Source of the DNA: Patescibacteria group bacterium
GTDB taxonomy: Bacteria; Patescibacteriota; Patescibacteriia; UBA11705; DATKZF01
NCBI GenBank assembly: GCA_049319825.1
Contig: JBMORT010000002.1
Location: 204,072 to 268,071 of the forward strand
DNA: 64,000 nucleotides
Reading direction: 5' to 3'
Both the position numbers and the translations under genes were made by a program. Below the pieces are notes generated by a model. That model saw only the letters and a list, made by a program, of their open reading frames with translations, was not told the origin of the DNA and did not search any database. Below, one piece after another: positions 20,688-63,733 of this stretch; position 1 is the first letter of the stretch, and every line of letters starts with the position of its first letter.

Positions 20688-21677
20688 TTAACACAGTTCG
20701 GTTTTTATCTGGTCCATGGAAAGCAGGTGTTTTCTCGCTCGAGTTAAAGTTTGTTCGATGCGGCATGGAGAAAAGTCCGCTTCGGTGAGAATTTTGGTCA
20801 AATCATCTTCTTCAATGATTGTTCTTGCCAGCATAAAGCGGGCGATTCTGCCGATTTCCGGAATTTTGGTGCCGCTTTTAATAAAGGCATGAAGTATTCT
20901 TTCACCTGGCCAATTTTTTTGTGAAAAAAGCGCGGTAAGAATTTTATCCAGCGACCAATCGCAGTCGCTGAGCGCCTTTAGCAGTCTGGCGTCCTCCCAG
21001 CGTAGCCATTCTGACATTTCCTGCACGATATTATAAGTGCTCCAGCTGTTTGCTTCGAGCGCGGCGATTATTTCAACGTCGTTCCAACCGGACTCCGTCA
21101 AATAGAGCTGCATGCTCTGCTTTGAGGACTTGGTGTCGCAAAAGGCTTTAACTATCCTGGATTTCGTCCAAGCTTGTTTCTCCAGAGTCATGACGATCAG
21201 GTGTCCTTTGAATATCTTTAACAGTAAGGCGACGATTTCATCGTCATCCCACTTCAAAGCGATCAGCGCGGTGGCGGTGCGTTCCAATATCGCGGTGTTT
21301 TTTTGGATGCCCAGCTCAAACAGCTGTCTCGAGTTTTCAGATAATAAACCGTGATTGAGAAAGAACAATGCTCTGGAAAAAATACTTACCCCGTATTTTT
21401 TTTCGGGAAAATAATCTCTGAGCGCTTCGATGATTAAATCATCCGGCAGGCCGGCGGCGATCAAATTCGCCACGGTGGCAATGTGAAGCAGCCGGATTTT
21501 TCTCCGCATTGACTCTTTTTCTATTTCCGAATTGGGCCATTGCGGTTGCTTGTTTCGGTCGGAGCCGAATATTTTATTAAGCAGCGCGACATTAATTCGA
21601 GCGCGGCTTTCCGGGTGTCCGATCAGTAAATCGCGGTATCTTTGCAGCAGCATTGGCAGGTCGCTGTTTGGTGTCAT
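20688..21677 (-). CDS. hypothetical alpha-helical repeat protein
   Basis: ~6 internal ~35-aa repeats (W/D-x-DD-x-I-I-x-A-L..); RBS GGAGGGGG upstream of ATG. Confidence 0.5.
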   Translation of the reverse strand: MTPNSDLPMLLQRYRDLLIGHPESRARINVALLNKIFGSDRNKQPQWPNSEIEKESMRRKIRLLHIATVANLIAAGLPDDLIIEALRDYFPEKKYGVSIFSRALFFLNHGLLSENSRQLFELGIQKNTAILERTATALIALKWDDDEIVALLLKIFKGHLIVMTLEKQAWTKSRIVKAFCDTKSSKQSMQLYLTESGWNDVEIIAALEANSWSTYNIVQEMSEWLRWEDARLLKALSDCDWSLDKILTALFSQKNWPGERILHAFIKSGTKIPEIGRIARFMLARTIIEEDDLTKILTEADFSPCRIEQTLTRARKHLLSMDQIKTELC

Positions 21678-22495: not shown

Positions 22496-22693
22496 TCATT
22501 TTTTCTTTCTTTTTTCTGCCGTAAGCTTTTTCCTTGAAGAAATTCCCGTGCCCGGAATGCCCGTGTTCAGGAAAATCCCTTTTCTTCCGATGCTAATCGA
22601 CAGCCCCGGAATGCCGAAAGAAACTCCAATTCCATTTCCGGAAAGATTCAAACGAAGATTTCGGCCGAGTCTGATCCTTCGCTGGAAGCGCAT
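22496..22693 (-). CDS. DUF4236-like small glycine-rich protein
   Basis: MRFQRRIRLG..RLNLS..G.G.S.GIPG pattern typical of DUF4236; GGAG RBS. Confidence 0.5.
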   Translation of the reverse strand: MRFQRRIRLGRNLRLNLSGNGIGVSFGIPGLSISIGRKGIFLNTGIPGTGISSRKKLTAEKRKKK

Positions 22694-22704
22694 GTCTCTG
22701 CTCC

Positions 22705-22750
22705 TTTTCTAAAGTTAAAAAGAGGCGGTCTGGAATGTCCAAACCGCCTC
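22705..22750 (-). terminator. intrinsic terminator GAGGCGGT..ACCGCCTC + U-run
   Basis: 8-bp stem downstream of stop of 22772..23317 gene. Confidence 0.55.
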
Positions 22751-22771
22751 GCGTCACTGTGCTTGCAGCGG

Positions 22772-23317
22772 CTACTTCGTCGAGGACGAGCGCTTGCTCT
22801 CGGCGAGCGCCTCGGGCTCCTGCTCCAAGATATTGATCTTGGTGATGGCCTCGAAGGCGGGCTCGAGCTGCTTGAGCAGGGAGGCCGCCACTTCTCGGCC
22901 CGTGCCCTGCATGCAGTATTCGGCCACCTTGGCCACGGTGTTCGAGTTCGGGATGAATCCGTACTGAGTGGAGAGGTAGTGGACCGCGGTGGCGACGACC
23001 AGCGGTTCGAGCATGCGGCCGAGCTCGGTGTCGAAGTAACCGGGGTAGCTCTTGCCGAGCGCGCGTCGGACAATGCCGATGAGCAAATGGCAGGCCTCCT
23101 CGGACCCGGCGATCTTGGCGCCGTGCTTGAGGTTGTCCGTGACGGCCTGGAAAGTCTTGTTCGTCTTGTCGGTCATGGGGGGTCCTCCTTGGGTGGTTGA
23201 GCTGATGGCGGTATCAGCCCGTTTAGTTTCGGTCTGGACTTCGCTGTCAGGGTCTGGATCGCTCGCGGATTCTGGAATGCCCAGAACTTGCGCGATCTTC
23301 TTTTTCACGTTGGACAT
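22772..23317 (-). CDS. hypothetical protein on GC-rich (foreign-composition) island
   Basis: GC clearly ~60% versus ~42% flanks; strong AGGAGG RBS 6 nt before ATG (MSNVKKK); no family recognised. Confidence 0.55.
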   Translation of the reverse strand: MSNVKKKIAQVLGIPESASDPDPDSEVQTETKRADTAISSTTQGGPPMTDKTNKTFQAVTDNLKHGAKIAGSEEACHLLIGIVRRALGKSYPGYFDTELGRMLEPLVVATAVHYLSTQYGFIPNSNTVAKVAEYCMQGTGREVAASLLKQLEPAFEAITKINILEQEPEALAESKRSSSTK

Positions 23318-23421
23318 GCTGACCTCCTTTCGCTTCATGCCCCCAGCTTGATGGGCATAAAAACCGGCGATTTAACTCAGTAGACTCCTTCTCCACATGT
23401 TTTTGTTTGCTCGAGTTATCC

Positions 23422-46369: not shown

Positions 46370-46438
46370 TGGTCAATAATTAAAGATTAAAGCAAATATC
46401 GAGCGGTGCTTTCGCCGCGCAAAAAAATTAAAAATAAT

Positions 46439-46470
46439 AAGACCGAGAGTGTTTTCTCGGTCTTTTTTTT
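46439..46470. terminator. bidirectional terminator AAGACCGAGA-gtgtt-TTCTCGGTCTT + T9
   Basis: 10-bp stem between convergent genes. Confidence 0.6.
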
Positions 46471-47162
46471 TAGTTTGAATAGTTGAAGACCCGGATTTGG
46501 GTCCTCGCCTTGGCCTTTACCAGCAGTCTGGTGGCCATGGGATTGACCCACATCGGGTCGGTCTTGCCGTTCCAGACGAAGATTCGTCCGGCTTTGGCAA
46601 CGGGCAGTTCCGCCCAGTTGCCGATGTTTTTTTCGTCCGGCACCATCACCATGATGGGCGCGGTGTAGTCGAAGATCTTGGCCAGCACCGGCTTGCCCAT
46701 CCTGATTTCGTAGATGGGGCCGGGCTCGATGTCGGCCTCGAAATCGGGCCGCCAGGCCATGGCCACGGCCGCCGGGCGGTCATTGTCCGTGATCGGACTG
46801 CTGATGCTCAAACCGAACACGCGGTTGAGCATCCCCGGCAGCGCGTAGTTTAGAACCACCAGCGCGCCAATGACGATGGCGATGAATACCACCATCGCCT
46901 TGGCCCAGAACCAGTCTCTGGGCTTTGGCTTTTTGGCCTCGGGCTTTTTGGCCGTTTTCTTGGCATCGGCCTCGGACTTGTCGTCCGTTTTTTGGGTCTG
47001 CGCGTCCGCCTTCGGCCAGGCGCCCAGACACACGAAAAGTCCTGCCACTGCGGCTCCGATCACTGCCCAGACCGCGTAGCCCGGGATGACCTTGAGCCCG
47101 ATGGCCGAGCCGATCAGCGCGACCAGCAGTCCGAACAGAATTGCCATTACCTTCCTTTTCAT
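46470..47162 (-). CDS. membrane protein co-transcribed with SPFH protein (possible NfeD-like partner), GC-rich
   Basis: 3 TM plus Lys-rich linker plus C-terminal soluble domain; GC ~58%. Confidence 0.5.
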   Translation of the reverse strand: MKRKVMAILFGLLVALIGSAIGLKVIPGYAVWAVIGAAVAGLFVCLGAWPKADAQTQKTDDKSEADAKKTAKKPEAKKPKPRDWFWAKAMVVFIAIVIGALVVLNYALPGMLNRVFGLSISSPITDNDRPAAVAMAWRPDFEADIEPGPIYEIRMGKPVLAKIFDYTAPIMVMVPDEKNIGNWAELPVAKAGRIFVWNGKTDPMWVNPMATRLLVKAKARTQIRVFNYSN

Positions 47163-47172
47163 TAAAAACCTC

Positions 47173-48189
47173 CTAGAGGTTGAAGAGTTTCGCGGGATCG
47201 ATCAGGTTCACATTGCCCTGTCCGCCCTTGCCCCAGGCGGCCAGCGCCTGCCACTTGAGCTGCTCAAGCTTGAATCGAGCCAGCTCTGCGCCGGTGACTC
47301 CCAGTTTCCCGAGAGCCTCGGCCTCCTTTTCGAGCGCCTTGACCTGCGCCTGGCCTTCGAGCGCGCTCAGCTCTTCTTTACGGCGAGCGACCTCGATGCT
47401 GGCCTGAATGTCGACCAGCGCAGCCTGACGCTTCTGATGCTCGACCACGACCGCCTTGAGGCTTTCCTCGACCTCGGGGTCGAGGTTGACGTCCTCGATC
47501 AGCACATCAAGGATCTCGATGCCCCACTGATTCTGGATGTCGATCTCATCGGTGGTCGGGTTCAGCAGTCCCTCCCTCATCAGGCGGCTGTTTTCGAGCC
47601 AGTCGATGGCCAGCAGGTTCTCGAACTCGACGTTGATGTCGAGCACGATCTTTTGGAACAACCTGCGGATCAGGTCGTCCACCAGTTCCCGGGCCTTGGT
47701 TTCTTCGGCTCCGCCAATCAGATTTTGCTTGACCTGCAGAAATCTTTCGGCGTTCCGAATGAGGTTCCCCTTCGTCTGGAACCTCAGGTTGAGCGAGATC
47801 TCTTTGGCCACCACCTTGACCGGAGTCTTGATGGCTTTGCCGTCGCTGCCGACCACCGTGTACTGGAGATCGGCTTTGACATCTCGCACATTTAGCGAGA
47901 ATAATTCCGTGGACTGGACGATGCGCTCTTCCCACCAGGGGAAGTAGATCCTCCAGCCCGGGTGTTTCACCGCGATCAGGCCACCGAAACTGACGATAAA
48001 CCAGATTTCGGTGGGTTTGACCATCTCGACCCTGATCATGTTCATGACCAGGATCGCGGCCGCGATGATCGTGCTGCCGATGATCAGCATGTCGCTGACA
48101 TCGATCGGCCGCATGACCCACAGCAAGATCATCTCGCACAAAACAAACAGCCAGAGCAGGGCGAATTTCAACATGCTCGAATAATTCAT
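47173..48189 (-). CDS. SPFH/band-7 (stomatin/flotillin-like) family protein, GC-rich
   Basis: N-terminal TM then SPFH core then long coiled coil; start at second ATG (48189) preceded by GGGAGG. Confidence 0.75.
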   Translation of the reverse strand: MNYSSMLKFALLWLFVLCEMILLWVMRPIDVSDMLIIGSTIIAAAILVMNMIRVEMVKPTEIWFIVSFGGLIAVKHPGWRIYFPWWEERIVQSTELFSLNVRDVKADLQYTVVGSDGKAIKTPVKVVAKEISLNLRFQTKGNLIRNAERFLQVKQNLIGGAEETKARELVDDLIRRLFQKIVLDINVEFENLLAIDWLENSRLMREGLLNPTTDEIDIQNQWGIEILDVLIEDVNLDPEVEESLKAVVVEHQKRQAALVDIQASIEVARRKEELSALEGQAQVKALEKEAEALGKLGVTGAELARFKLEQLKWQALAAWGKGGQGNVNLIDPAKLFNL

Positions 48190-48231
48190 CTGATTCCTCC
48201 CGATTGGTTTAATTTCATCCAAATTCATATT

Positions 48232-48260
48232 ATTATATCATATTTTTTCATTTTTGTCAA
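48232..48260 (-). promoter_or_regulatory. sigma70 promoter TTGACA-17-TATAAT driving GC-rich SPFH operon
   Basis: perfect hexamers, AT-rich host-like context. Confidence 0.6.
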
Positions 48261-48261
48261 T

Positions 48262-48291
48262 TTAGCCAAAAAGAGAGCCGGAGCTCTCTTT
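48262..48291 (-). terminator. terminator AAAGAGAGC-tccg-GCTCTCTTT after pilin-like gene
   Basis: 9-bp stem plus U-run. Confidence 0.5.
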
Positions 48292-48324
48292 GGTATTAGA
48301 TGATTTTTATTCTAAAATTAGCAA

Positions 48325-48825
48325 TTATTGCTGCAATGCTCTAAGAACGAATGAAACCAAGGTATAGCTGAGGAAAATAACAGCCAAACCGATGGCCGCG
48401 TATAGCATGGCCTTCTTGCCTTTGTCAATCCGGCCTTCACTGCCGCCAGAAAACATCCACAGCACGCCGCCGTAGATGAATACGGCCAGAGCGATCGATC
48501 CGGAAACGCCGATAACCGATTTGATGATCCGGCCAATCACCACGTTGATGTCGGTTTGCTCCCCCGGTGTTTTGGCCAGAAAATTTGGTAAAATAATGTC
48601 CGCCGGCGTAGTAGATTGAGCGCCGCCCGGAGCGGGCGGTGTAACTTCCAGCGTGGCGGTGCCGCCCGGAACCTCGCCGGTCTGCGTGCCGCCGCCTTCA
48701 CCGCCCGTTTGAGTGCCGCCGGCGTCCGGCAGAGTTTGAGTCGCCAAAGCCAATGGCGCTGATGCGATCACCAGAGAAAATAGCAAAATTGTCGGAATTA
48801 ATAAATGGATTGTTTTGGTTTTCAT
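48325..48825 (-). CDS. TrbC/VirB2-like pilin-family protein
   Basis: signal peptide, G/T/P-rich repeats, two C-terminal TM helices with GGSEGRIDKGKK loop; internal Met start at 48825. Confidence 0.6.
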   Translation of the reverse strand: MKTKTIHLLIPTILLFSLVIASAPLALATQTLPDAGGTQTGGEGGGTQTGEVPGGTATLEVTPPAPGGAQSTTPADIILPNFLAKTPGEQTDINVVIGRIIKSVIGVSGSIALAVFIYGGVLWMFSGGSEGRIDKGKKAMLYAAIGLAVIFLSYTLVSFVLRALQQ

Positions 48826-48827
48826 AT

Positions 48828-50276
48828 TTATGTGCTGGGAATTATTTTTTTCCATGTTGATTTTTTAAAACTGCTGATATGCGTTTTGGCCGTTCGTGTT
48901 TTGACGAATTTAAGCCACTGGGGATTTGGACCCTTGCGGTGCTTGTCGATGATGATGTCAACGACATCGCCGTTTTTAAGCTTGGCGTCGAGCGGCACCT
49001 GCTGATCGTTAACGCTAGCGCTGCCGCATTTATTGCCGATATCCGAATGTATTTCATAGGCGAAATCAACCGGGGTGGCGCCTTCGGGCAGATCGATAAC
49101 GTCGCCTTTTGGTGTGAAAACAAAAATTCTATTTTGGAAAAAATCTATTTTGACCGTTTCTAAAAAATTTTCATCGTCTTTAATTTCTTTTTGCCATTTC
49201 GCCAACTCATCGACCCAGCCCAAATCTTCAATTTTTGTTTTTCCTCCCTTTTCTTTATATTTCCAGTGTGAGGCGATGCCGAATTCCGCTTGCTCGTGCA
49301 TCTGCGGCGTGCGAATTTGGAATTCAACCTGCTCGTGATTGTCGCCGAATACGGTGGTATGCAGCGATTGATAACCGTTCGGCTTTGGCTGGGCGATATA
49401 ATCTTTTATTCTGCCTTTAACCGGCTTCCATAAGCTGTGAATAATGCCCAGCGCCGCGTAGCAATCGGCAATATCCTTAACGATGATTCGCGCCGCCACC
49501 AAATCGTAGATGTGATTGATGTCTTTTTCGTTTTTTATCAATTTGCGGTAAAGGCTGTAATAATGCTTCGTGCGGCTGTACACGTCCAGATAGTGGACGT
49601 TATTTTCTTTCAATTTCCGTTTTAATTTATTAAGCATTGATTCCAGCGCGCGTTCTTTGATCGGCAGCCCCTTTTTTATTAAACCCTCCACCCAAATATA
49701 TTCATCGGGAAAACCGTATTTGAACGCCTCATCCTCCAGCTTGCCTTGCAATTCTCCCATGCCCAGCCGATTGGCGATCGGCGCGTAGATTTCCAGCACT
49801 TCCATGGCGATGCGTTTTTGTTTATCCGCCGGCAGCGCGTAGAGCGTTCTTAAATTGTGAAGCCGATCGGCGAATTTGATGATGATCACCCGAATGTCTT
49901 TGGCCATGGCCACGAACATTTTGCGCAAATTTTCAACATAGCGTTTCATGCCGCGGTATTTGACGGTGCCGAGCTTGGTAATGCCATCGACCATGTCGGC
50001 GACGTCAGCGCCGAAATTTTGTTTGATGTCTTCCAGCGTGTATTCGGTGTCTTCCGGAACATCATGAAGCAAGCCGGCGATTATTATATTTTGATTGACC
50101 CCAAGATCGGCGAGGTTTTGGGCGGTGGCCAGCGCGTGATCAATATAGTCGACACCGGTGGCGCGGCGCTGGCCGGCGTGCGCTGTTTTCGCAAATTCAT
50201 AAGCCAGCTCGATCAGCGCCAGATCGGCTTTGGGGTCATACTTTTTAACGGTTGTCAGCAATTTGCGAATGGTCAT
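48828..50276 (-). CDS. rel: Rel/SpoT-family (p)ppGpp synthetase/hydrolase (HD intact) with TGS domain, no ACT
   Basis: HD motif LLHDVPEDT, synthetase YQSLHTTV..RTPQMH, TGS TPKGDVIDLP.GATP.DFAY. Confidence 0.85.
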   Translation of the reverse strand: MTIRKLLTTVKKYDPKADLALIELAYEFAKTAHAGQRRATGVDYIDHALATAQNLADLGVNQNIIIAGLLHDVPEDTEYTLEDIKQNFGADVADMVDGITKLGTVKYRGMKRYVENLRKMFVAMAKDIRVIIIKFADRLHNLRTLYALPADKQKRIAMEVLEIYAPIANRLGMGELQGKLEDEAFKYGFPDEYIWVEGLIKKGLPIKERALESMLNKLKRKLKENNVHYLDVYSRTKHYYSLYRKLIKNEKDINHIYDLVAARIIVKDIADCYAALGIIHSLWKPVKGRIKDYIAQPKPNGYQSLHTTVFGDNHEQVEFQIRTPQMHEQAEFGIASHWKYKEKGGKTKIEDLGWVDELAKWQKEIKDDENFLETVKIDFFQNRIFVFTPKGDVIDLPEGATPVDFAYEIHSDIGNKCGSASVNDQQVPLDAKLKNGDVVDIIIDKHRKGPNPQWLKFVKTRTAKTHISSFKKSTWKKIIPST

Positions 50277-57333: not shown

Positions 57334-58428
57334 TTATGATTTGACATAATTCTGATTCCCCAGATTCTTCACCATGCCTTTCATTTCCATTATAGTCAGA
57401 TTCGAATTGATTTCGCCAGCGCTGAGGCCGGTCAGCTTGACGACAAGATCGATGTGCTTGGGCTCGTCGGACAAAATTTCCAAAATCCTCTGCTCGATCG
57501 GACTGGCCGGCAGAATTTTTTTGTTTTCGGAATATTCTTCAATTTTTTCAATGTTTAACTCTTCCAATATATCGTCGACGCCGGTCACCAGCTTGGCCCC
57601 CTGTTTGATCAGATCATTGGTGCCTTGACTGACCGGAGAAGTGATCGGACCGGGAACAGCAAACACTTCGCGATTTTGATCAAGCGCGTATTTGGCGGTG
57701 ATCAGCGCGCCGGATGTTTCCCCGGCTTCAATGACCAGAGTTCCGACGCTCAGTCCGGAGATGATTCTGTTTCTGGTCGGGAAATTATGTCGCAGCGGAA
57801 GCGTGCCGATCGGGTATTCGGACAGCAGCAAGCCGCCGTTATCCAATATTTGCTGAGCCAGATAGCGATTAGATGTGGGATAAATATTTTCTCGATCAAT
57901 GCTTGAGCCGAGAACGGCAATAGTTTTTCCGCCGTATTTTATTGTTTCCGAATGAACCAACGAGTCGATTCCCAAAGCCAGACCGCTAACCAAAGTCAGC
58001 TCGGCCTTGACCAGGCCCCGCACCAGTTCCGGCACGATTTGCTGTCCATAGCCGGATATTTTTCGAGTGCCGACTACGGCTAAGGATATTTTTGACAAGC
58101 ATTCAATGTTGCCGCGATAAAACAGCAGCGCCGGCGATCCGTGTATTTGCTTGAGCGGCGCCGGGTATTCCGGCTGAGTGAAAAATATTGCTTTTAACTT
58201 GGCGGATTGGAATTTTTCTAGCTCTGATTCCGGATCAATAAATTTTCGCTTGGCCGCGAATTCCTCGGCCACGGACATTTCAATCCCGGCCTGCATCATT
58301 TCTTGCGGACGTGCATTGAAAGCGTCTTTGAGCGATGGGAAATAATTGAACAATCGCTTGAGACGAACCGAACCGATTTTGGGAAATCTGATAATTCCCA
58401 GACAGTATTTTAATTCTTCGATCAGCAT
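57334..58428 (-). CDS. dprA: DNA processing protein A (DprA/Smf)
   Basis: Rossmann-like DprA core AVVGTRK..G..LA.G.D...H; start at internal ATG 58428. Confidence 0.8.
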   Translation of the reverse strand: MLIEELKYCLGIIRFPKIGSVRLKRLFNYFPSLKDAFNARPQEMMQAGIEMSVAEEFAAKRKFIDPESELEKFQSAKLKAIFFTQPEYPAPLKQIHGSPALLFYRGNIECLSKISLAVVGTRKISGYGQQIVPELVRGLVKAELTLVSGLALGIDSLVHSETIKYGGKTIAVLGSSIDRENIYPTSNRYLAQQILDNGGLLLSEYPIGTLPLRHNFPTRNRIISGLSVGTLVIEAGETSGALITAKYALDQNREVFAVPGPITSPVSQGTNDLIKQGAKLVTGVDDILEELNIEKIEEYSENKKILPASPIEQRILEILSDEPKHIDLVVKLTGLSAGEINSNLTIMEMKGMVKNLGNQNYVKS

Positions 58429-58487
58429 ATGTTGTATCAGGTTAACATAAAAGAAATTTTTTGAAAATATGATTAATTTCCGACGCG

Positions 58488-58516
58488 TTGACAAAAAATG
58501 TTTGAAACGATAGAAT
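58488..58516 (+). promoter_or_regulatory. sigma70 promoter TTGACA-17-TAGAAT
   Basis: drives candidate ncRNA. Confidence 0.5.
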
Positions 58517-58522
58517 TTTATT

Positions 58523-58653
58523 GATGATCGCCCCGCTGCGACAGGGTGAATGGCGCATCGCCCGAATAACCCCTGTTGGCTCACCCATTGCGCCAGCTCA
58601 ACGAAACCGCAAATCGCCCGCAAACAATCATTGTTTGCGGGCCTGCCTTTTTT
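58523..58653 (+). ncRNA. candidate ~130-nt structured RNA with pseudoknot-compatible pairings and terminator
   Basis: interleaved complementary pairs ACAGGG/CCCTGT and TGGCGCA/TGCGCCA; 11-bp terminator stem CCCGCAAACAA/TTGTTTGCGGG then T6. Confidence 0.35.
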
Positions 58654-58831
58654 AAAAAAGTGCCGTAACCAGTAAAAGGAAATAGCTTACGGAAATAGCA
58701 TGAGTTTTTGGCTCTGCTGTGGGTTTGGCATTTCGAGCTTTATTTTTGTGTAAATTTAGCATGTTATCATTGTTTATTGACAACCTTCATAATTATTTAT
58801 AAACTGAAATCGCTTGAAAAACAATGTCACG

Positions 58832-58860
58832 TTGACATTCTCCATATTTTATGATATAAT
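58832..58860 (+). promoter_or_regulatory. sigma70 promoter TTGACA-17-TATAAT with ~200-nt leader to GC-rich lipoprotein gene
   Basis: perfect consensus; second weaker promoter TTGACA-17-TAAACT at 58777..58805. Confidence 0.55.
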
Positions 58861-59073
58861 AGAAAGTCAATTCAGAGGAATGGGAGAATGAATTTTTTAA
58901 CAATACGCGCATGATTTTGCTTATCGGCCGGGTCAGTGCTAGCAGCCCCTCCTCTGCTGCCGAGTACCTGCGTTGGTAAGCAATATCATGAGCGGTATTG
59001 TCCGATAGAATCCCCGGATCCTCGAGATAGCGGGGATTCATTGTATACGACAAACTCACGGAAGGAGTTAACT

Positions 59074-59427
59074 ATGTCCAAGTTGGTAGTTCTGGCTCTT
59101 CTGGTCGGAGTCGGTGGCTGTACGCTGAGCGCGGGTCCGCCGGTTCTCGTCAATACCCCGCACTACGCCTACCATTCGGGCGGCCTGTGCAATGACGGGT
59201 TCTACTACGACGGCTATTACTGCCGTGCGGCCCGGTTCGCCCATGTCTTCTACCGTCCACACCCCGAGTACGGCCGCGGCTACTACCACGGCTACTCGGG
59301 CCATGCCTACTACCGCCATCATCCCTACCGCCGGCCAACCGTCGTCGTCACCGATCACCAGCAGCACCGTAAAGTAAAGGTGGTCAAGGTCAAGCGGCCC
59401 CGCCATCGTCCCCATCGCTATCGCTAA
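59074..59427 (+). CDS. small Tyr/His/Arg-rich lipoprotein on GC-rich island
   Basis: GGAGG RBS, signal peptide with lipobox-like VGGC, GC ~62%. Confidence 0.5.
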   Translation: MSKLVVLALLVGVGGCTLSAGPPVLVNTPHYAYHSGGLCNDGFYYDGYYCRAARFAHVFYRPHPEYGRGYYHGYSGHAYYRHHPYRRPTVVVTDHQQHRKVKVVKVKRPRHRPHRYR

Positions 59428-59438
59428 TCCAAAAAAAA

Positions 59439-59466
59439 GAGCGCTGAAGCCATGCTTTCAGCGCTC
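59439..59466. terminator. bidirectional terminator GAGCGCTGAA..TTCAGCGCTC flanked by A8 / T-run
   Basis: 10-bp stem between lipoprotein gene and pth. Confidence 0.6.
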
Positions 59467-59482
59467 AAAAGTTTTAAATAAG

Positions 59483-60022
59483 CTATATCAATTTTTCCTG
59501 TTCCAAAATCTTGCCAAAGGTTTTTTTTAATTTATTTTTTTCTAATAATGAAAATTTGCGCAATACGAAATCCGCCGCATCGCCCATTTTCCGGCGGTCA
59601 GGCCTGGCCACGCCGATCCGCAGCCGCCAGAAGTCGTTTGATCCAAGCTTGTCCATTATGTCTTGCACCCCGCGGTGGCCGGCGCTTGATCGCGATCGCT
59701 GCAATTTGTATTCGCCCAGTAAAATATCGATGTCATCATGCACGACCAAAATATCGTCCAAATTGATTTTAAAATAGGCGGCGATGCTCTGCGCGGCCGA
59801 ACCCGATTTATTCATAAAAGTCAGCGGCTTGGCCAAAATTATTTTTTTTCCGTCTGCTACGACTTGGTTTATCCAGCTGGACCAGCGCGTTTCTTTCTTC
59901 CAGCCGGAAAATCCTGGCGCTTTGTCGGCGATCATGTCGAGCATCATGAATCCGACATTGTGCCGCGTTTTTTCATATGCGGCCCCGGGATTACCCAGAC
60001 CGATTATTAATTTTGTTTTCAT
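59483..60022 (-). CDS. pth: peptidyl-tRNA hydrolase
   Basis: LIIGLGNPG..Y..TRHN.GF N-terminus. Confidence 0.9.
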   Translation of the reverse strand: MKTKLIIGLGNPGAAYEKTRHNVGFMMLDMIADKAPGFSGWKKETRWSSWINQVVADGKKIILAKPLTFMNKSGSAAQSIAAYFKINLDDILVVHDDIDILLGEYKLQRSRSSAGHRGVQDIMDKLGSNDFWRLRIGVARPDRRKMGDAADFVLRKFSLLEKNKLKKTFGKILEQEKLI

Positions 60023-61398
60023 AAAGTCTGTTGTCTTTTTTTTGCAATGAGTTTAATACCGCTGCCGCTTTTGAAAAATTTTTCCCGCAAACTGTTTAAC
60101 AAATAACGGCGATACGAGAAAGACAGCCATTTGGGTTCATTGACGATTACCGCGAATGTCGGCGGATCAATGCCGATTTGATTGATTTCATAAATATACG
60201 GCGGTTTGGCCAGTCGCGATTTGGCGCGCGGCGGCTGTTTTTTTATCAATGATTTTAGCAATCTATCAAGCCCGCTTTGGCTGATCACTTGTTTTCTGGC
60301 TTCGATCAGTTCGACCAGCATTTCCATTAATTTGGAAACGCGAAATCCGGATTTGGCCGAAACAAACACGATCGGCGCCCAAGCCAAAAAAGGCAGCATC
60401 GTCTGATAATACTCAATATATTTTTTTTGCGTTTTGGTGTCTTTTTCCGGTATCAGATCCCATTTATTGGCGACGATGATCAGGCTGGGATGGTTTTCCA
60501 TAATTTGCTGAGCCAAATTTTTATCTTGAAATTCAAGCCGTCGCGAGCAGTCGGTTATCAGCAGCGCGACATCCGATTCCTCTATCGATTGCAAGCTTTG
60601 TTCAATTCCCTGTCGTTCAAGTTTGCCTTTCACTTTGCCTTTTTTGCGCACGCCGGCGGTATCGATGAATTGAAAATTATAGGTGCTTCCGTTTTTGGCT
60701 TTATAATCAACATCGATCGTTTGCCGGTCGCGGGTGGTATGCGGTTTTTCGTTGACGATCACGCGCTCTTCGCCGGCGATGACATTAAATAGAGATGATT
60801 TGCCGACATTGGGTTTGCCGATCAGCGCGACTTTAATTTTTTTATCCACTTTTTCTTTAACGATTTCAGCCGTTTGTTTGTTTAGATTTATTTTTTCAAA
60901 AATAATGTCCAAAAGATCGCCGGAGCCGCGGCCGCTGAGCGCCGACACCGGAATCGGATCGCCCAGCCCAAGCTTATAGAATTCGGGCAGCGTGGCGTCC
61001 TGCCGGGCCGAATCACATTTGTTGACCACCAATAAAATATCTTTTTTATTTTTTAGACGAATGCGCTTGAGGATTTTTTTGTCATCGGCCAGCGGTCCGG
61101 ATTTGGCGTCAACCACAAACAGCACCAAATCGGCCTGGGCGATGGCGATGTCGGCTTGTTTTAGAGATTGCTCTTCGATCAGATCGGGATCCTTCACGTC
61201 CAGACCCGCGGCATCGATAATCGTGAAATTTTCTCCGCGCCACAATACTTGGCCGTATTGTCGGTCGCGAGTGGTGCCGGCGATGTCGGAAACAATCGCC
61301 TGGCGGGTTTCCGTCAGTTTATTGAACAGCGTGGATTTGCCGACGTTTACTCGGCCGGCCAAAACCACGGCCGGGTTTTCTTTTTTTATCTTGCTCAT
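60019..61398 (-). CDS. der: ribosome-associated GTPase Der (EngA)
   Basis: two G domains (GRVNVGKSTLFN, GKPNVGKSSLFN) plus KH-like C-term. Confidence 0.9.
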   Translation of the reverse strand: MSKIKKENPAVVLAGRVNVGKSTLFNKLTETRQAIVSDIAGTTRDRQYGQVLWRGENFTIIDAAGLDVKDPDLIEEQSLKQADIAIAQADLVLFVVDAKSGPLADDKKILKRIRLKNKKDILLVVNKCDSARQDATLPEFYKLGLGDPIPVSALSGRGSGDLLDIIFEKINLNKQTAEIVKEKVDKKIKVALIGKPNVGKSSLFNVIAGEERVIVNEKPHTTRDRQTIDVDYKAKNGSTYNFQFIDTAGVRKKGKVKGKLERQGIEQSLQSIEESDVALLITDCSRRLEFQDKNLAQQIMENHPSLIIVANKWDLIPEKDTKTQKKYIEYYQTMLPFLAWAPIVFVSAKSGFRVSKLMEMLVELIEARKQVISQSGLDRLLKSLIKKQPPRAKSRLAKPPYIYEINQIGIDPPTFAVIVNEPKWLSFSYRRYLLNSLREKFFKSGSGIKLIAKKRQQTL

Positions 61399-63118: not shown

Positions 63119-63733
63119 ATGGAAAAAATAGAAACAAATGATCCGATTATCCCCAACAAATCAAGGAAGCGCGTTTTTTTTGAATTTGTCTGGGACTTGC
63201 TAAAAGTCGCTTGCATTTCGCTGGCGATTATAATTCCGGTCAGATATTTTTTAATCCAGCCGTTTTACGTCAAAGGCGCTTCGATGGAACCGAATTTGTA
63301 TGACCATGAATATCTGATAATCGATGAAATTTCTTATCGTTTCAACGGTCCGGAGCGGGGCGATATTGTCGTTTTTAAATATCCGCTCGACCAATCGCAA
63401 TATTTTATAAAAAGAGTGATCGGTCTGCCGGGAGAAAAAGTCGAGGTCAAAGACGGCATGATTTATATTTATTCTACAGATCAGGAGGGCACTGCCAGAA
63501 AGTACGTGTTGAATGAAACGGGATATCTAGATCCGAGCATTAAAACCTACGGCAACCATGCTTTTACTTTAGCGGCGGATGAATATTTTATGCTGGGAGA
63601 CAACCGCACTCAAAGCCTCGATTCCCGCACTTTTGGACCGGTATACCGGGATTTAATCATGGGAAAGGTTTGGCTGCGCGGCTGGCCTTTTAATCGAGCC
63701 ATGGTGTTCAGCGAGGTCGAATACGGGTTTTAA
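63119..63733 (+). CDS. lepB: signal peptidase I
   Basis: GASMEP (Ser box), GDIVVFK, KRVIGLPGE (Lys box), GDNR..S.DSR. Confidence 0.85.
   Translation: MEKIETNDPIIPNKSRKRVFFEFVWDLLKVACISLAIIIPVRYFLIQPFYVKGASMEPNLYDHEYLIIDEISYRFNGPERGDIVVFKYPLDQSQYFIKRVIGLPGEKVEVKDGMIYIYSTDQEGTARKYVLNETGYLDPSIKTYGNHAFTLAADEYFMLGDNRTQSLDSRTFGPVYRDLIMGKVWLRGWPFNRAMVFSEVEYGF

Follow-up and report, generated by a model that had tools for sequence, protein, structure and literature searches.

Between dprA and pth, the genome of a Patescibacteria group bacterium holds an interval in which a strong promoter, a structured RNA and a small GC-rich gene follow one another on the plus strand. We analysed it within a stretch of 64,000 nucleotides (the window; contig JBMORT010000002.1, positions 204,072 to 268,071), in which a sequence-only reading had described a foreign gene behind a host consensus promoter and a structured leader. 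In the window, dprA occupies 57334-58428 (−; start refined by eye), with folC on its far side, and pth-der 59483-61398 (−). Our analysis makes it rather probable that positions 58832-59470 are a composite transcription unit, in which a conserved small RNA (sRNA) gene precedes a protein gene specific to one clade. Promoter and leader make up an sRNA gene in its own right, with conserved structure and strand, and the open reading frame (ORF) at 59074-59427 is, judging from its pattern of substitution, a real, compositionally atypical and clade-restricted protein gene.

Scanning one genome of each GTDB species for DprA gave 62 loci (designated L); the loci that hold both pth and dprA number 41. 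The gene order der-pth-[gap]-dprA(-folC) was conserved among these relatives, with a pth-dprA gap of 73-3802 nt, the closest relative being L001 (DprA identity 67%, locus GC 34%). A covariance model (CM) built from three sequences, R1, matched the pth-dprA gap of 13 more distant relatives, always antisense to pth/dprA. With a second model, R2, built from 19 sequences, the RNA was found (E<1e-5) in 33 of the 41 loci holding both genes, on the same strand, and a second tandem copy, nearer to dprA, was present in 19 loci. Scores reached 109 bits on the strand antisense to pth/dprA as against at most 45 bits on the opposite one, and the matches were confined to the gap. The lineages concerned are Patescibacteria labelled as Falkowbacteria, Uhrbacteria and Buchananbacteria.

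In the 13 distant relatives, which were examined individually, no Tyr/His/Arg-rich ORF was found downstream of the RNA. Since the RNA occupies the same gap in 33/41 relatives and does so without a downstream ORF in these 13, we conclude that it is an sRNA gene, not a cis-regulatory leader. The sequence-only reading was thus right in having the ORF driven from the consensus promoter through a structured RNA, and mistaken in taking promoter and RNA for the host promoter and leader of a foreign gene. In most of the distant relatives, the RNA core was followed by a terminator-like hairpin and a U-run, or by a U-run directly after its closing helix, which argues for a free RNA of about 130-180 nt. 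In several of them, including L005, L009 and L013, the match stops a few nucleotides from the 3′ end of the convergent pth. T-box, riboswitch and other cis-regulatory leaders were considered as identities and rejected, as no consistent downstream gene was seen in the distant relatives examined.

The closing helix, P1, has at least 22 bp, and the window-type RNA as a whole is a near-continuous helix. In alignment A7 (MAFFT only, 16 sequences), 94.3% of its cells were paired compared with 36-46% when the pairing was slid, and 16 of the 22 pairs had changed on both sides (0/500 shuffles). In alignment A11 (model-fitted, 40 sequences), the values were 94.2% and 37-46%, with 21/22 pairs changed on both sides (0/500 shuffles). 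P1 contains many G-U pairs, which would be A-C mismatches on the opposite strand and so fit the sRNA strand only. Six compensatory pairs separate the window from L001/L063, two of them (CG to UA) in a second hairpin, which reads GAATCCCcg/cgGGGATTC in the window and GAATCCCta/taGGGATTC in L001. The window and L001 were 63% identical over the columns of the leader core (28 of which are gap columns) versus 41% over those of the ORF, and their alignment had in common the perfect promoter and the core TTTTGCTTATCGGCC..GCAGCCCCTCCTCTGC..GTTGGTAAGCAATAT. The core was near-identical between L001 and L063 despite a synonymous divergence (dS) of 0.64 in the adjoining ORF. The leader, announced as structured and about 200 nt long, does fold far better than shuffled sequences: over the ~207 nt that separate the probable start near 58867 from the ATG, we obtained −78.3 kcal/mol, with z=−4.4 and 0/200 shuffles as good.

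In the window, the main promoter of the sRNA lies at 58832-58860 (+); it is a TTGACA-17-TATAAT sequence, that is, 12/12 matches to the sigma70 consensus, with a TG extension, and would place the transcription start near 58867. A secondary, putative sigma70-like promoter (TTGACA-17-TAAACT, 10/12) lies upstream at 58777-58805 (+). Both had been pointed out from the letters of the window, the one at 58832 as a perfect consensus, and both were recovered. In L071, too, a 10/12 promoter precedes the main one, by 67 nt, and L001 has none; promoter-like sites in the region numbered 7 versus 3.0±1.9 in shuffles. In L001, L063, L071, L072 and L070, the sRNA is preceded by a promoter of 11-12/12 that has this spacing and a TG extension as well. 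At the scale of the family, 24/40 copies have a sigma70-like promoter of at least 10/12 upstream on the same strand, compared with 5% of shuffled upstream regions.

The 5′ tail of the RNA (58867-58896, +) is purine-rich and poorly conserved, with 38% identity to L001 over 58861-58899. It leads into the conserved core (58897-59003, +; R2 score 88.7 bits, E 9e-20), whose parts are P1, a short helix (P1b) that has an internal loop, and an apical hairpin, P2. The apical loop CCCUCCUCU occupies 58947-58955 (+). A CAGAGGA motif of the tail could pair with the 3′ portion of this loop, and L001 and L063 have such complementarity as well; a pseudoknot was rejected, as this complementarity is not conserved in L071. 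Then comes hairpin 2 (GAATCCCCG at 59008-59016 and CGGGGATTC at 59031-59039, +; ΔG −16 kcal/mol), the 9-bp hairpin that had been noticed near the ribosome-binding site. It is probably the stem of the sRNA's intrinsic terminator, with a U-tract eroded in the window. L001, L063 and L071 have kept a U5 tract after this stem, the tail being AUUCUUUUU in L001/L063, GUUCUUUUU in L071 and AUUGUAUA (4 U of 8) in the window, where a terminator scanner did not call the hairpin at 59008-59039, strong as its stem is.

At gathering score, Rfam 15 has no family for this sRNA: only three tRNAs were found in the whole window, and only tRNAs in 14 relatives. Lowering the threshold yielded nothing relevant at positions 58300-59600 of the window (E<=10), and far-subthreshold chance matches only in five relatives (E<=1) and in L005:300-760 (E<=10). 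In the searchable literature, no description of a regulatory sRNA from Patescibacteria (candidate phyla radiation) was found. Two housekeeping RNAs were tried and rejected. For 6S RNA (RF00013), the minimum free energy (MFE) folds showed small internal loops and no large central bubble, the core has 107-145 nt versus ~180 nt, and there was no Rfam match. For the signal recognition particle (SRP) RNA, a GGUCA..AGCAGCC pair of motifs is reminiscent of SRP helix 8; neither a GNRA hairpin between the two halves nor an Rfam SRP match was found.

The most constant part of the RNA is its apical loop. CCUCC was present in 40/40 family members, and for 39 of them the MFE fold placed it in a hairpin loop; the loops have 7-9 nt. 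The loop was UCCCUCCU or CCCCUCCU in most copies, and UAUCCUCCUU or UCCUCCUU in a paralogue lying upstream of the sRNA. The stems that close it were of 35 distinct kinds among 39. Through CCUCC, which is common to the whole family, the loop mimics the anti-Shine-Dalgarno (anti-SD) sequence of the 16S rRNA 3′ end. A comparable arrangement exists in the cuckoo/αr14 sRNAs of Alphaproteobacteria (NfeR1, RSs0680a-d), in which a CCUCCUCCC anti-SD loop motif, carried on variable stems, is predicted to occlude ribosome-binding sites (PMC4615179, PMC10746234). The two share an invariant C/U-rich anti-SD motif in hairpin loops, highly variable and compensating stems, a promoter and a terminator for each gene, a genomic context that is kept, and multiple paralogues. 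They differ by phylum and in the motif itself, which is CCCUCCU, CCCCUCCUCU or UCCUCCUU here; exact CCUCCUCCC was not seen in the family loops ((U/C)CCCUCCU, CCCUCCUCU or UAUCCUCCUU). Moreover, no sequence or CM similarity links them (no Rfam match), and cuckoo/αr14 RNAs consist of two to four adjacent short hairpins, whereas the RNA described here has one loop on a closing helix of at least 22 bp, with a three-way junction in most relatives. We therefore view cuckoo/αr14 as the closest functional analogue, which suggests a likeness of working and not membership.

Other bacteria use comparable devices. The csRNAs of Streptococcus, the 6C RNA of Actinobacteria and RoxS/RsaE of Firmicutes are ~90-200 nt long and pair with Shine-Dalgarno (SD) regions through C-rich or anti-SD single-stranded motifs; some csRNA genes are in tandem, and csRNAs are linked to competence control. 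The sRNA studied here adjoins the competence gene dprA, a link that is positional only. It differs from these RNAs by the absence of an Rfam 15 CM match, by its long closing helix and by a promoter that is not of the CiaR type.

A different role for the same RNA would be to bind a protein or the ribosome, either as a decoy of the 16S 3′ end that titrates a factor acting on the anti-SD region, or as a structural or 6S-like RNA in which the long helix does the work. In view of that helix and of a conserved internal loop rich in purines, we regard the decoy role as a serious alternative, while considering this whole class of explanations unlikely. By inspection, a helix of at least 22 bp with a conserved single-base interruption resembles protein-binding modules, and so does this internal loop, of GAAA/CGGA type, which lies below P2. 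Housekeeping RNAs typically show the high conservation, strong promoters and fixed synteny seen here. The loop UCCUCCUU of the upstream paralogue also closely resembles the 16S 3′ tail. Against it, no Rfam family matched, be it 6S, SRP or any other, the window-type RNA is almost without internal loops and lacks a large central bubble, and none of the adjacent genes encodes a candidate partner protein. Furthermore, an invariant single-stranded loop on variable stems is the signature of seed-pairing sRNAs (PMC4615179).

Some further features of the RNAs of distant relatives (e.g., L005:360-482(−) and L029:5378-5502(−)) were noticed by eye. A 3-bp helix below the anti-SD hairpin appears to covary (GAU/GUC, GGU/GCC, GGC/GCC, GGU/ACC), and on its flanks lies a conserved internal loop rich in purines, GAAA(G) / (C)CGGA. 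In some of these RNAs, the internal loop has a GUGAUGA resembling a box C/K-turn motif, and a third hairpin, GGGCCUUGUGCCC, has been lost in the clade of the window. The upstream paralogue (e.g., L009:5760-5879(−), L005:545-663(−), L004:5769-5888(−) and L007:5796-5916(−)) has a long helix, its own TTGACA promoter and an apical loop UUUUCCUCCUU or UAUCCUCCUU. A U-run lies directly 3′ of its helix, so that the whole RNA looks like one giant terminator-like hairpin.

We then turn to the protein gene, at 59074-59427 (+). Its SD sequence is GGAAGGAG (59060-59067, +; AAGGAG core), 6 nt 5′ of the ATG, and not the literal GGAGG of the sequence-only reading; likewise, the product has 117 aa rather than 118. 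It comprises Y15, H12, R13 and P9, that is, 34% Tyr+His+Arg, and its pI is 10.0. The signal peptide MSKLVVLALLVGVGGC and the lipobox V-G-G-C16 (59074-59121) are followed by a Cys39-x2-GF-x-YD-x-Y-x-Cys50 loop and by a HRKVKVVKVKRPRHRPH tail. The signal peptide, lipobox and Tyr/His/Arg richness had been recognized from the outset, whereas the repeats then described are a compositional bias only, YYHGY and HRPH occurring once each. The AlphaFold2 model had a mean predicted local distance difference test score (pLDDT) of 50 and showed no structure beyond a small beta-hairpin (residues 43-52), as would be expected if most of the chain is disordered.

When the single sequence was searched among 5.8 billion clusters and 1.84 billion representatives, its sole match was the protein itself, recorded as a hypothetical protein from a Patescibacteria metagenome; homology was established from synteny, profiles and a shuffle test. 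Profile searches included, no homologue outside the clade was found in these two sets. Pfam and NCBIfam had no family for it, with only a chance EGF_3 match at E 0.59. The pth-dprA gap of L001 has an ORF of 131 aa on the strand opposite to pth/dprA, with a signal peptide, a lipobox, a Tyr/His/Arg-rich body, a HRKVVVKKNRPRP tail and 56% GC. Profile searches and a pattern scan of metagenomes added P0002 (L063-65, L068), L069 (same as L001), L071/P0003, L066, L072/P0004 and L070, the last with a different occupant; a further hit of the scan, L067, was rejected as a chance match with no CM match. Homologues occupy the slot in five further loci, or about four distinct lineages besides the window, with the same orientation in the der-pth / dprA-folC neighbourhood wherever the contig was long enough. 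All five Tyr/His/Arg-rich homologues have an SD sequence (AAGGAGAGAG at the equivalent place in L001/L063), an ATG, a signal peptide and a lipobox Cys. By inspection, they fit the pattern [LVI][ASTVIG][GAS]C, with MSK-LVVLALLVGV-GGC16 in the window, LAGAGC in L001/L063, LVSGC in L071 and LASGC in L072. Their common motifs are the lipobox Cys, a G-[FY]-x-[YN]-D-x-Y, which two cysteines close in the window, L071 and L072, a Tyr/His/Arg-rich stretch and a VVHRPKVV..RPRP..H tail. With composition adjustment, BLASTP found no significant similarity between the proteins of the window and L001; Smith-Waterman alignment of the mature regions of the window protein and each homologue gave z values of 4.6-8.8 over 1000 composition-preserving shuffles.

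The mode of divergence indicated that these ORFs are protein-coding genes. Between L001 and L063, the ratio of nonsynonymous to synonymous divergence (dN/dS) was 0.17, with 20/9/45 differences at the three codon positions; between L071 and L072, it was 0.18, with 29/29/69, and indels were in frame in both pairs. Low dN/dS, the third-position excess, in-frame indels and a similarity that exceeds composition are the reasons for calling the gene real. The idea that the GC-rich stretch 59074-59427 is non-coding, either a structured RNA or a chance ORF, could draw on the missing Pfam and NCBIfam matches and on other open frames, namely an antisense one of 115 aa (59068-59415) and two overlapping ORFs of 61-62 aa. 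It is refuted by this substitution pattern, and the initiation and export signals common to all five homologues also oppose it; we give it practically no credit.

The GC content of the gene is indeed elevated, as had been claimed: the coding sequence (CDS) has 61.9% versus 44.6% for the whole window (z=+2.8 against all 354-nt windows), and its codon positions have 0.67/0.44/0.75. In the window, host CDS have 45.9% GC and 53.4% GC at third codon positions (GC3), and the ORF 62.4% and 75.2%, where its amino acids and host codon usage predict 54.4% and 56.5%. The same comparison gave, for host CDS, ORF and expectation, respectively, 34.5%/28.4%, 56.2%/54.2% and 46.2%/32.0% in L001, and 33.0%/24.6%, 55.2%/52.2% and 45.3%/29.4% in L063. 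Amino acid composition alone therefore accounts for about half of the GC excess of the window gene. In L070, the slot downstream of a window-type sRNA is occupied by an apparently unrelated gene, L070:3358-3939 (+), whose product is a 193-aa, Arg/Gly-rich secreted protein (68.7% GC) with PRGQ-like repeats, without the lipobox Cys, and with a distinct C-terminal domain and no Pfam match. With this occupant, the slot seems to accept GC-rich genes for secreted basic proteins, and all six slot genes (the five homologues and that of L070) exceed the GC of their host locus by 16-25 points.

A rival explanation, built on the sequence-only reading, is a recently acquired foreign gene, lying behind a host consensus promoter with a cis-regulatory leader of the riboswitch or attenuator sort. 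The gap in GC and GC3 (61.9% and 75%, against 45.9% and 53.4% for host CDS), the failure to find a homologue outside the clade in the two protein collections and the strongly structured leader would all suit this view. Yet the leader RNA sits in the same gap of 33/41 relatives, the 13 distant ones having no such ORF, and in most of these a terminator-like hairpin or a U-run closes the RNA, opposite the 3′ end of the convergent pth. The ORF itself is syntenic in about five lineages, and the window gene has reached saturation at synonymous sites relative to L001/L063 (proportion of synonymous differences, pS, 0.77-0.85). Neither mobility genes, flanking tRNA nor border repeats were found at the locus, which lies between dprA and pth; plasmid and phage searches gave no match, and no donor homologue was found. 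Because of the syntenic slot, the saturated synonymous sites, a GC excess kept in all lineages and the lack of signs of mobility, plasmid or phage, a recent foreign insertion is unlikely. As a recent event, this explanation is largely refuted, and in its full form we hold it to be very improbable; the foreign origin proposed by the sequence-only reading was not borne out in that sense, whereas the underlying observation was confirmed with small corrections. An ancient transfer into the ancestor of the clade and a de novo origin are indistinguishable with these data. For genome scans, the lesson is that high GC behind a consensus promoter need not mean foreign DNA.

Taken as a composite unit, the locus could work as follows. 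Transcription would start near 58867 from the strong sigma70-type promoter. In most of the distant relatives examined, the sRNA probably terminates at the hairpin or U-run that follows its core. Its CCUCC loop may pair with purine-rich ribosome-binding sites (AGGAGGG-like) of target mRNAs and block translation initiation, by analogy with cuckoo/αr14. In the small clade made of the window, L001, L063, L071 and L072, the protein gene, 30-60 nt downstream of the terminator hairpin, would be expressed by read-through, with the sRNA as its 5′ untranslated region (UTR). The ATG lies 34 nt from the terminator hairpin in the window, the ORF 45-60 nt from it in L001, L063 and L071, and no promoter was found between hairpin 2 and the ORF in L071 or L001; as no promoter of its own was detectable, the ORF is likely to be transcribed by read-through from the sRNA promoter. 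In the window, where the U-tract has apparently decayed, read-through should dominate. A last hairpin, GAGCGCTGA..TCAGCGCTC at 59439-59466, would end the transcripts of both the ORF and the convergent pth. It is strong on the minus strand, where it was called for pth with a T8 tail; on the plus strand it is weak (tail AAAAGTTTT). Its stem sequence is kept in L001, L063 and L071. The arrangement recalls 5′-UTR-derived units with a leaky terminator, such as riboswitch-derived SreA/SreB, in which one promoter yields a short terminated RNA and a read-through mRNA. It differs from them in that no ligand-sensing domain is evident and in that the free-standing sRNA is widespread and the ORF was added later in one clade, as if evolution had run the other way.

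The product is predicted, from inspection of its lipobox pattern, to be exported and lipid-anchored at Cys16. About 100 residues would then remain at the cell surface, mostly disordered and polycationic, with one small disulfide-closed beta-hairpin. Like other small bacterial lipoproteins, it has an N-terminal signal peptide, a lipobox Cys and a short mature chain; unlike them, it has no Pfam, NCBIfam or remote-homology match, an extreme Tyr/His/Arg/Pro/Val composition (pI 10-11.7) and a chain predicted to be mostly disordered. From this composition, the most plausible role is the binding of anionic surfaces or polymers, such as the envelope of a partner cell or DNA, or of metals.

Several points weigh against this interpretation of the locus. 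Transcript start, termination and read-through are deduced from the letters of the DNA, and the function suggested for the protein comes from its composition and a low-confidence model. An anti-SD loop of 5-7 nt is complementary to almost any SD sequence, which leaves target specificity unexplained. The only window gene with a 7-nt SD complementarity to the loop, at 20688-21677 (−; SD GGAGGGGG, GGAGGGG), is a candidate target and a lead, target prediction confined to the 64-kb window being uninformative. A near-perfect helix of at least 22 bp is unusual for a base-pairing sRNA and would equally suit a protein-binding or RNase III-processed RNA. As the loci were gathered through DprA, the synteny of distant sRNA copies is conditional on DprA, and the context-free search, a DNA pattern scan of metagenomes, covered the window-type RNA only. 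CM E-values are rough, and alignment A11 was fitted to the model, the MAFFT-only A7 giving the same result. Finally, GC3 exceeds that of the host by 20-28 points in every lineage, and this excess is unexplained.

The more notable finding is the sRNA family, which Rfam 15 lacks, which is strongly covarying and widespread, and which functionally resembles known sRNAs with anti-SD loops. Patescibacteria have tiny genomes and few known regulators, and the family offers a concrete entry to post-transcriptional control in these bacteria. The association of sRNA and ORF suggests that an orphan surface-protein gene was added to a pre-existing sRNA gene, which bears on gene birth and on the interconversion of sRNAs and mRNAs. 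The cationic lipoprotein might, speculatively, take part in cell-cell attachment or in DNA or metal binding in episymbionts. A broader proposal, which we put forward as a tentative possibility, is that an uncatalogued sRNA present throughout the class of Patescibacteria mimics, on a long helix and often as two tandem paralogues, the anti-SD tail of 16S rRNA and serves these minimal, episymbiotic bacteria as a global translation regulator or anti-SD decoy. In one clade, its strong promoter and leaky terminator would have become a site where fast-evolving, GC-rich genes for secreted cationic proteins were captured or arose de novo. If true, the locus would show gene birth riding on the transcription unit of a non-coding RNA.

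A second small transcription unit lies between dprA and the sRNA in the window, at 58488-58655 (+). It has an 11/12 promoter (58488-58516), ~130 nt at 57% GC, a fold z of −2.6 and a strong terminator at 58616-58642 with a T-run, and it sits in the slot used by the second tandem anti-SD sRNA copy in 19 relatives. It had no Rfam match and nothing similar in the relatives; considered as a diverged second sRNA copy, the segment 58517-58656 was rejected, as it showed no CM or BLAST similarity to relatives. Two regions of L001, L001:5400-5830 (−) and L001:4210-4520, were also noticed. Between its dprA and its sRNA, this relative has two additional mini-units, each running from a promoter to a terminator and one with another perfect TTGACA-17-TATAAT, and ~300 nt of 40-44% GC separate the shared terminator from pth; none of these resembles the window. 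In L006-L048, the pth-dprA gap is a variable hot spot with unrelated insertions in different lineages: L007/L010/L017 have a conserved ORF of ~105 aa, L029 a helix-turn-helix-type pair, L044 an ORF of 1038 aa and L021 one of 393 aa.

Many metagenome-assembled genomes (MAGs) of the 'binchicken' set are titled 'uncultured Gammaproteobacteria' or 'Bdellovibrionales' (L001, L007, L009, L013, L016, L017, L021, L026, L047, L052 and others). These titles look mislabelled, the der-pth-dprA synteny and the sRNA being as in Falkowbacteria-labelled MAGs. Elsewhere in the window, GC-rich patches lie at 22541-23338 and 46421-48855, and GC peaks at 64.4% near 22761, over a 188-aa ORF without a Pfam match. 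An SPFH/Band 7 gene is found at 47173-48228, an ORF resembling type IV secretion system (T4SS) pilins at 48325-48855, and a signal peptidase I gene at 63119-63733.

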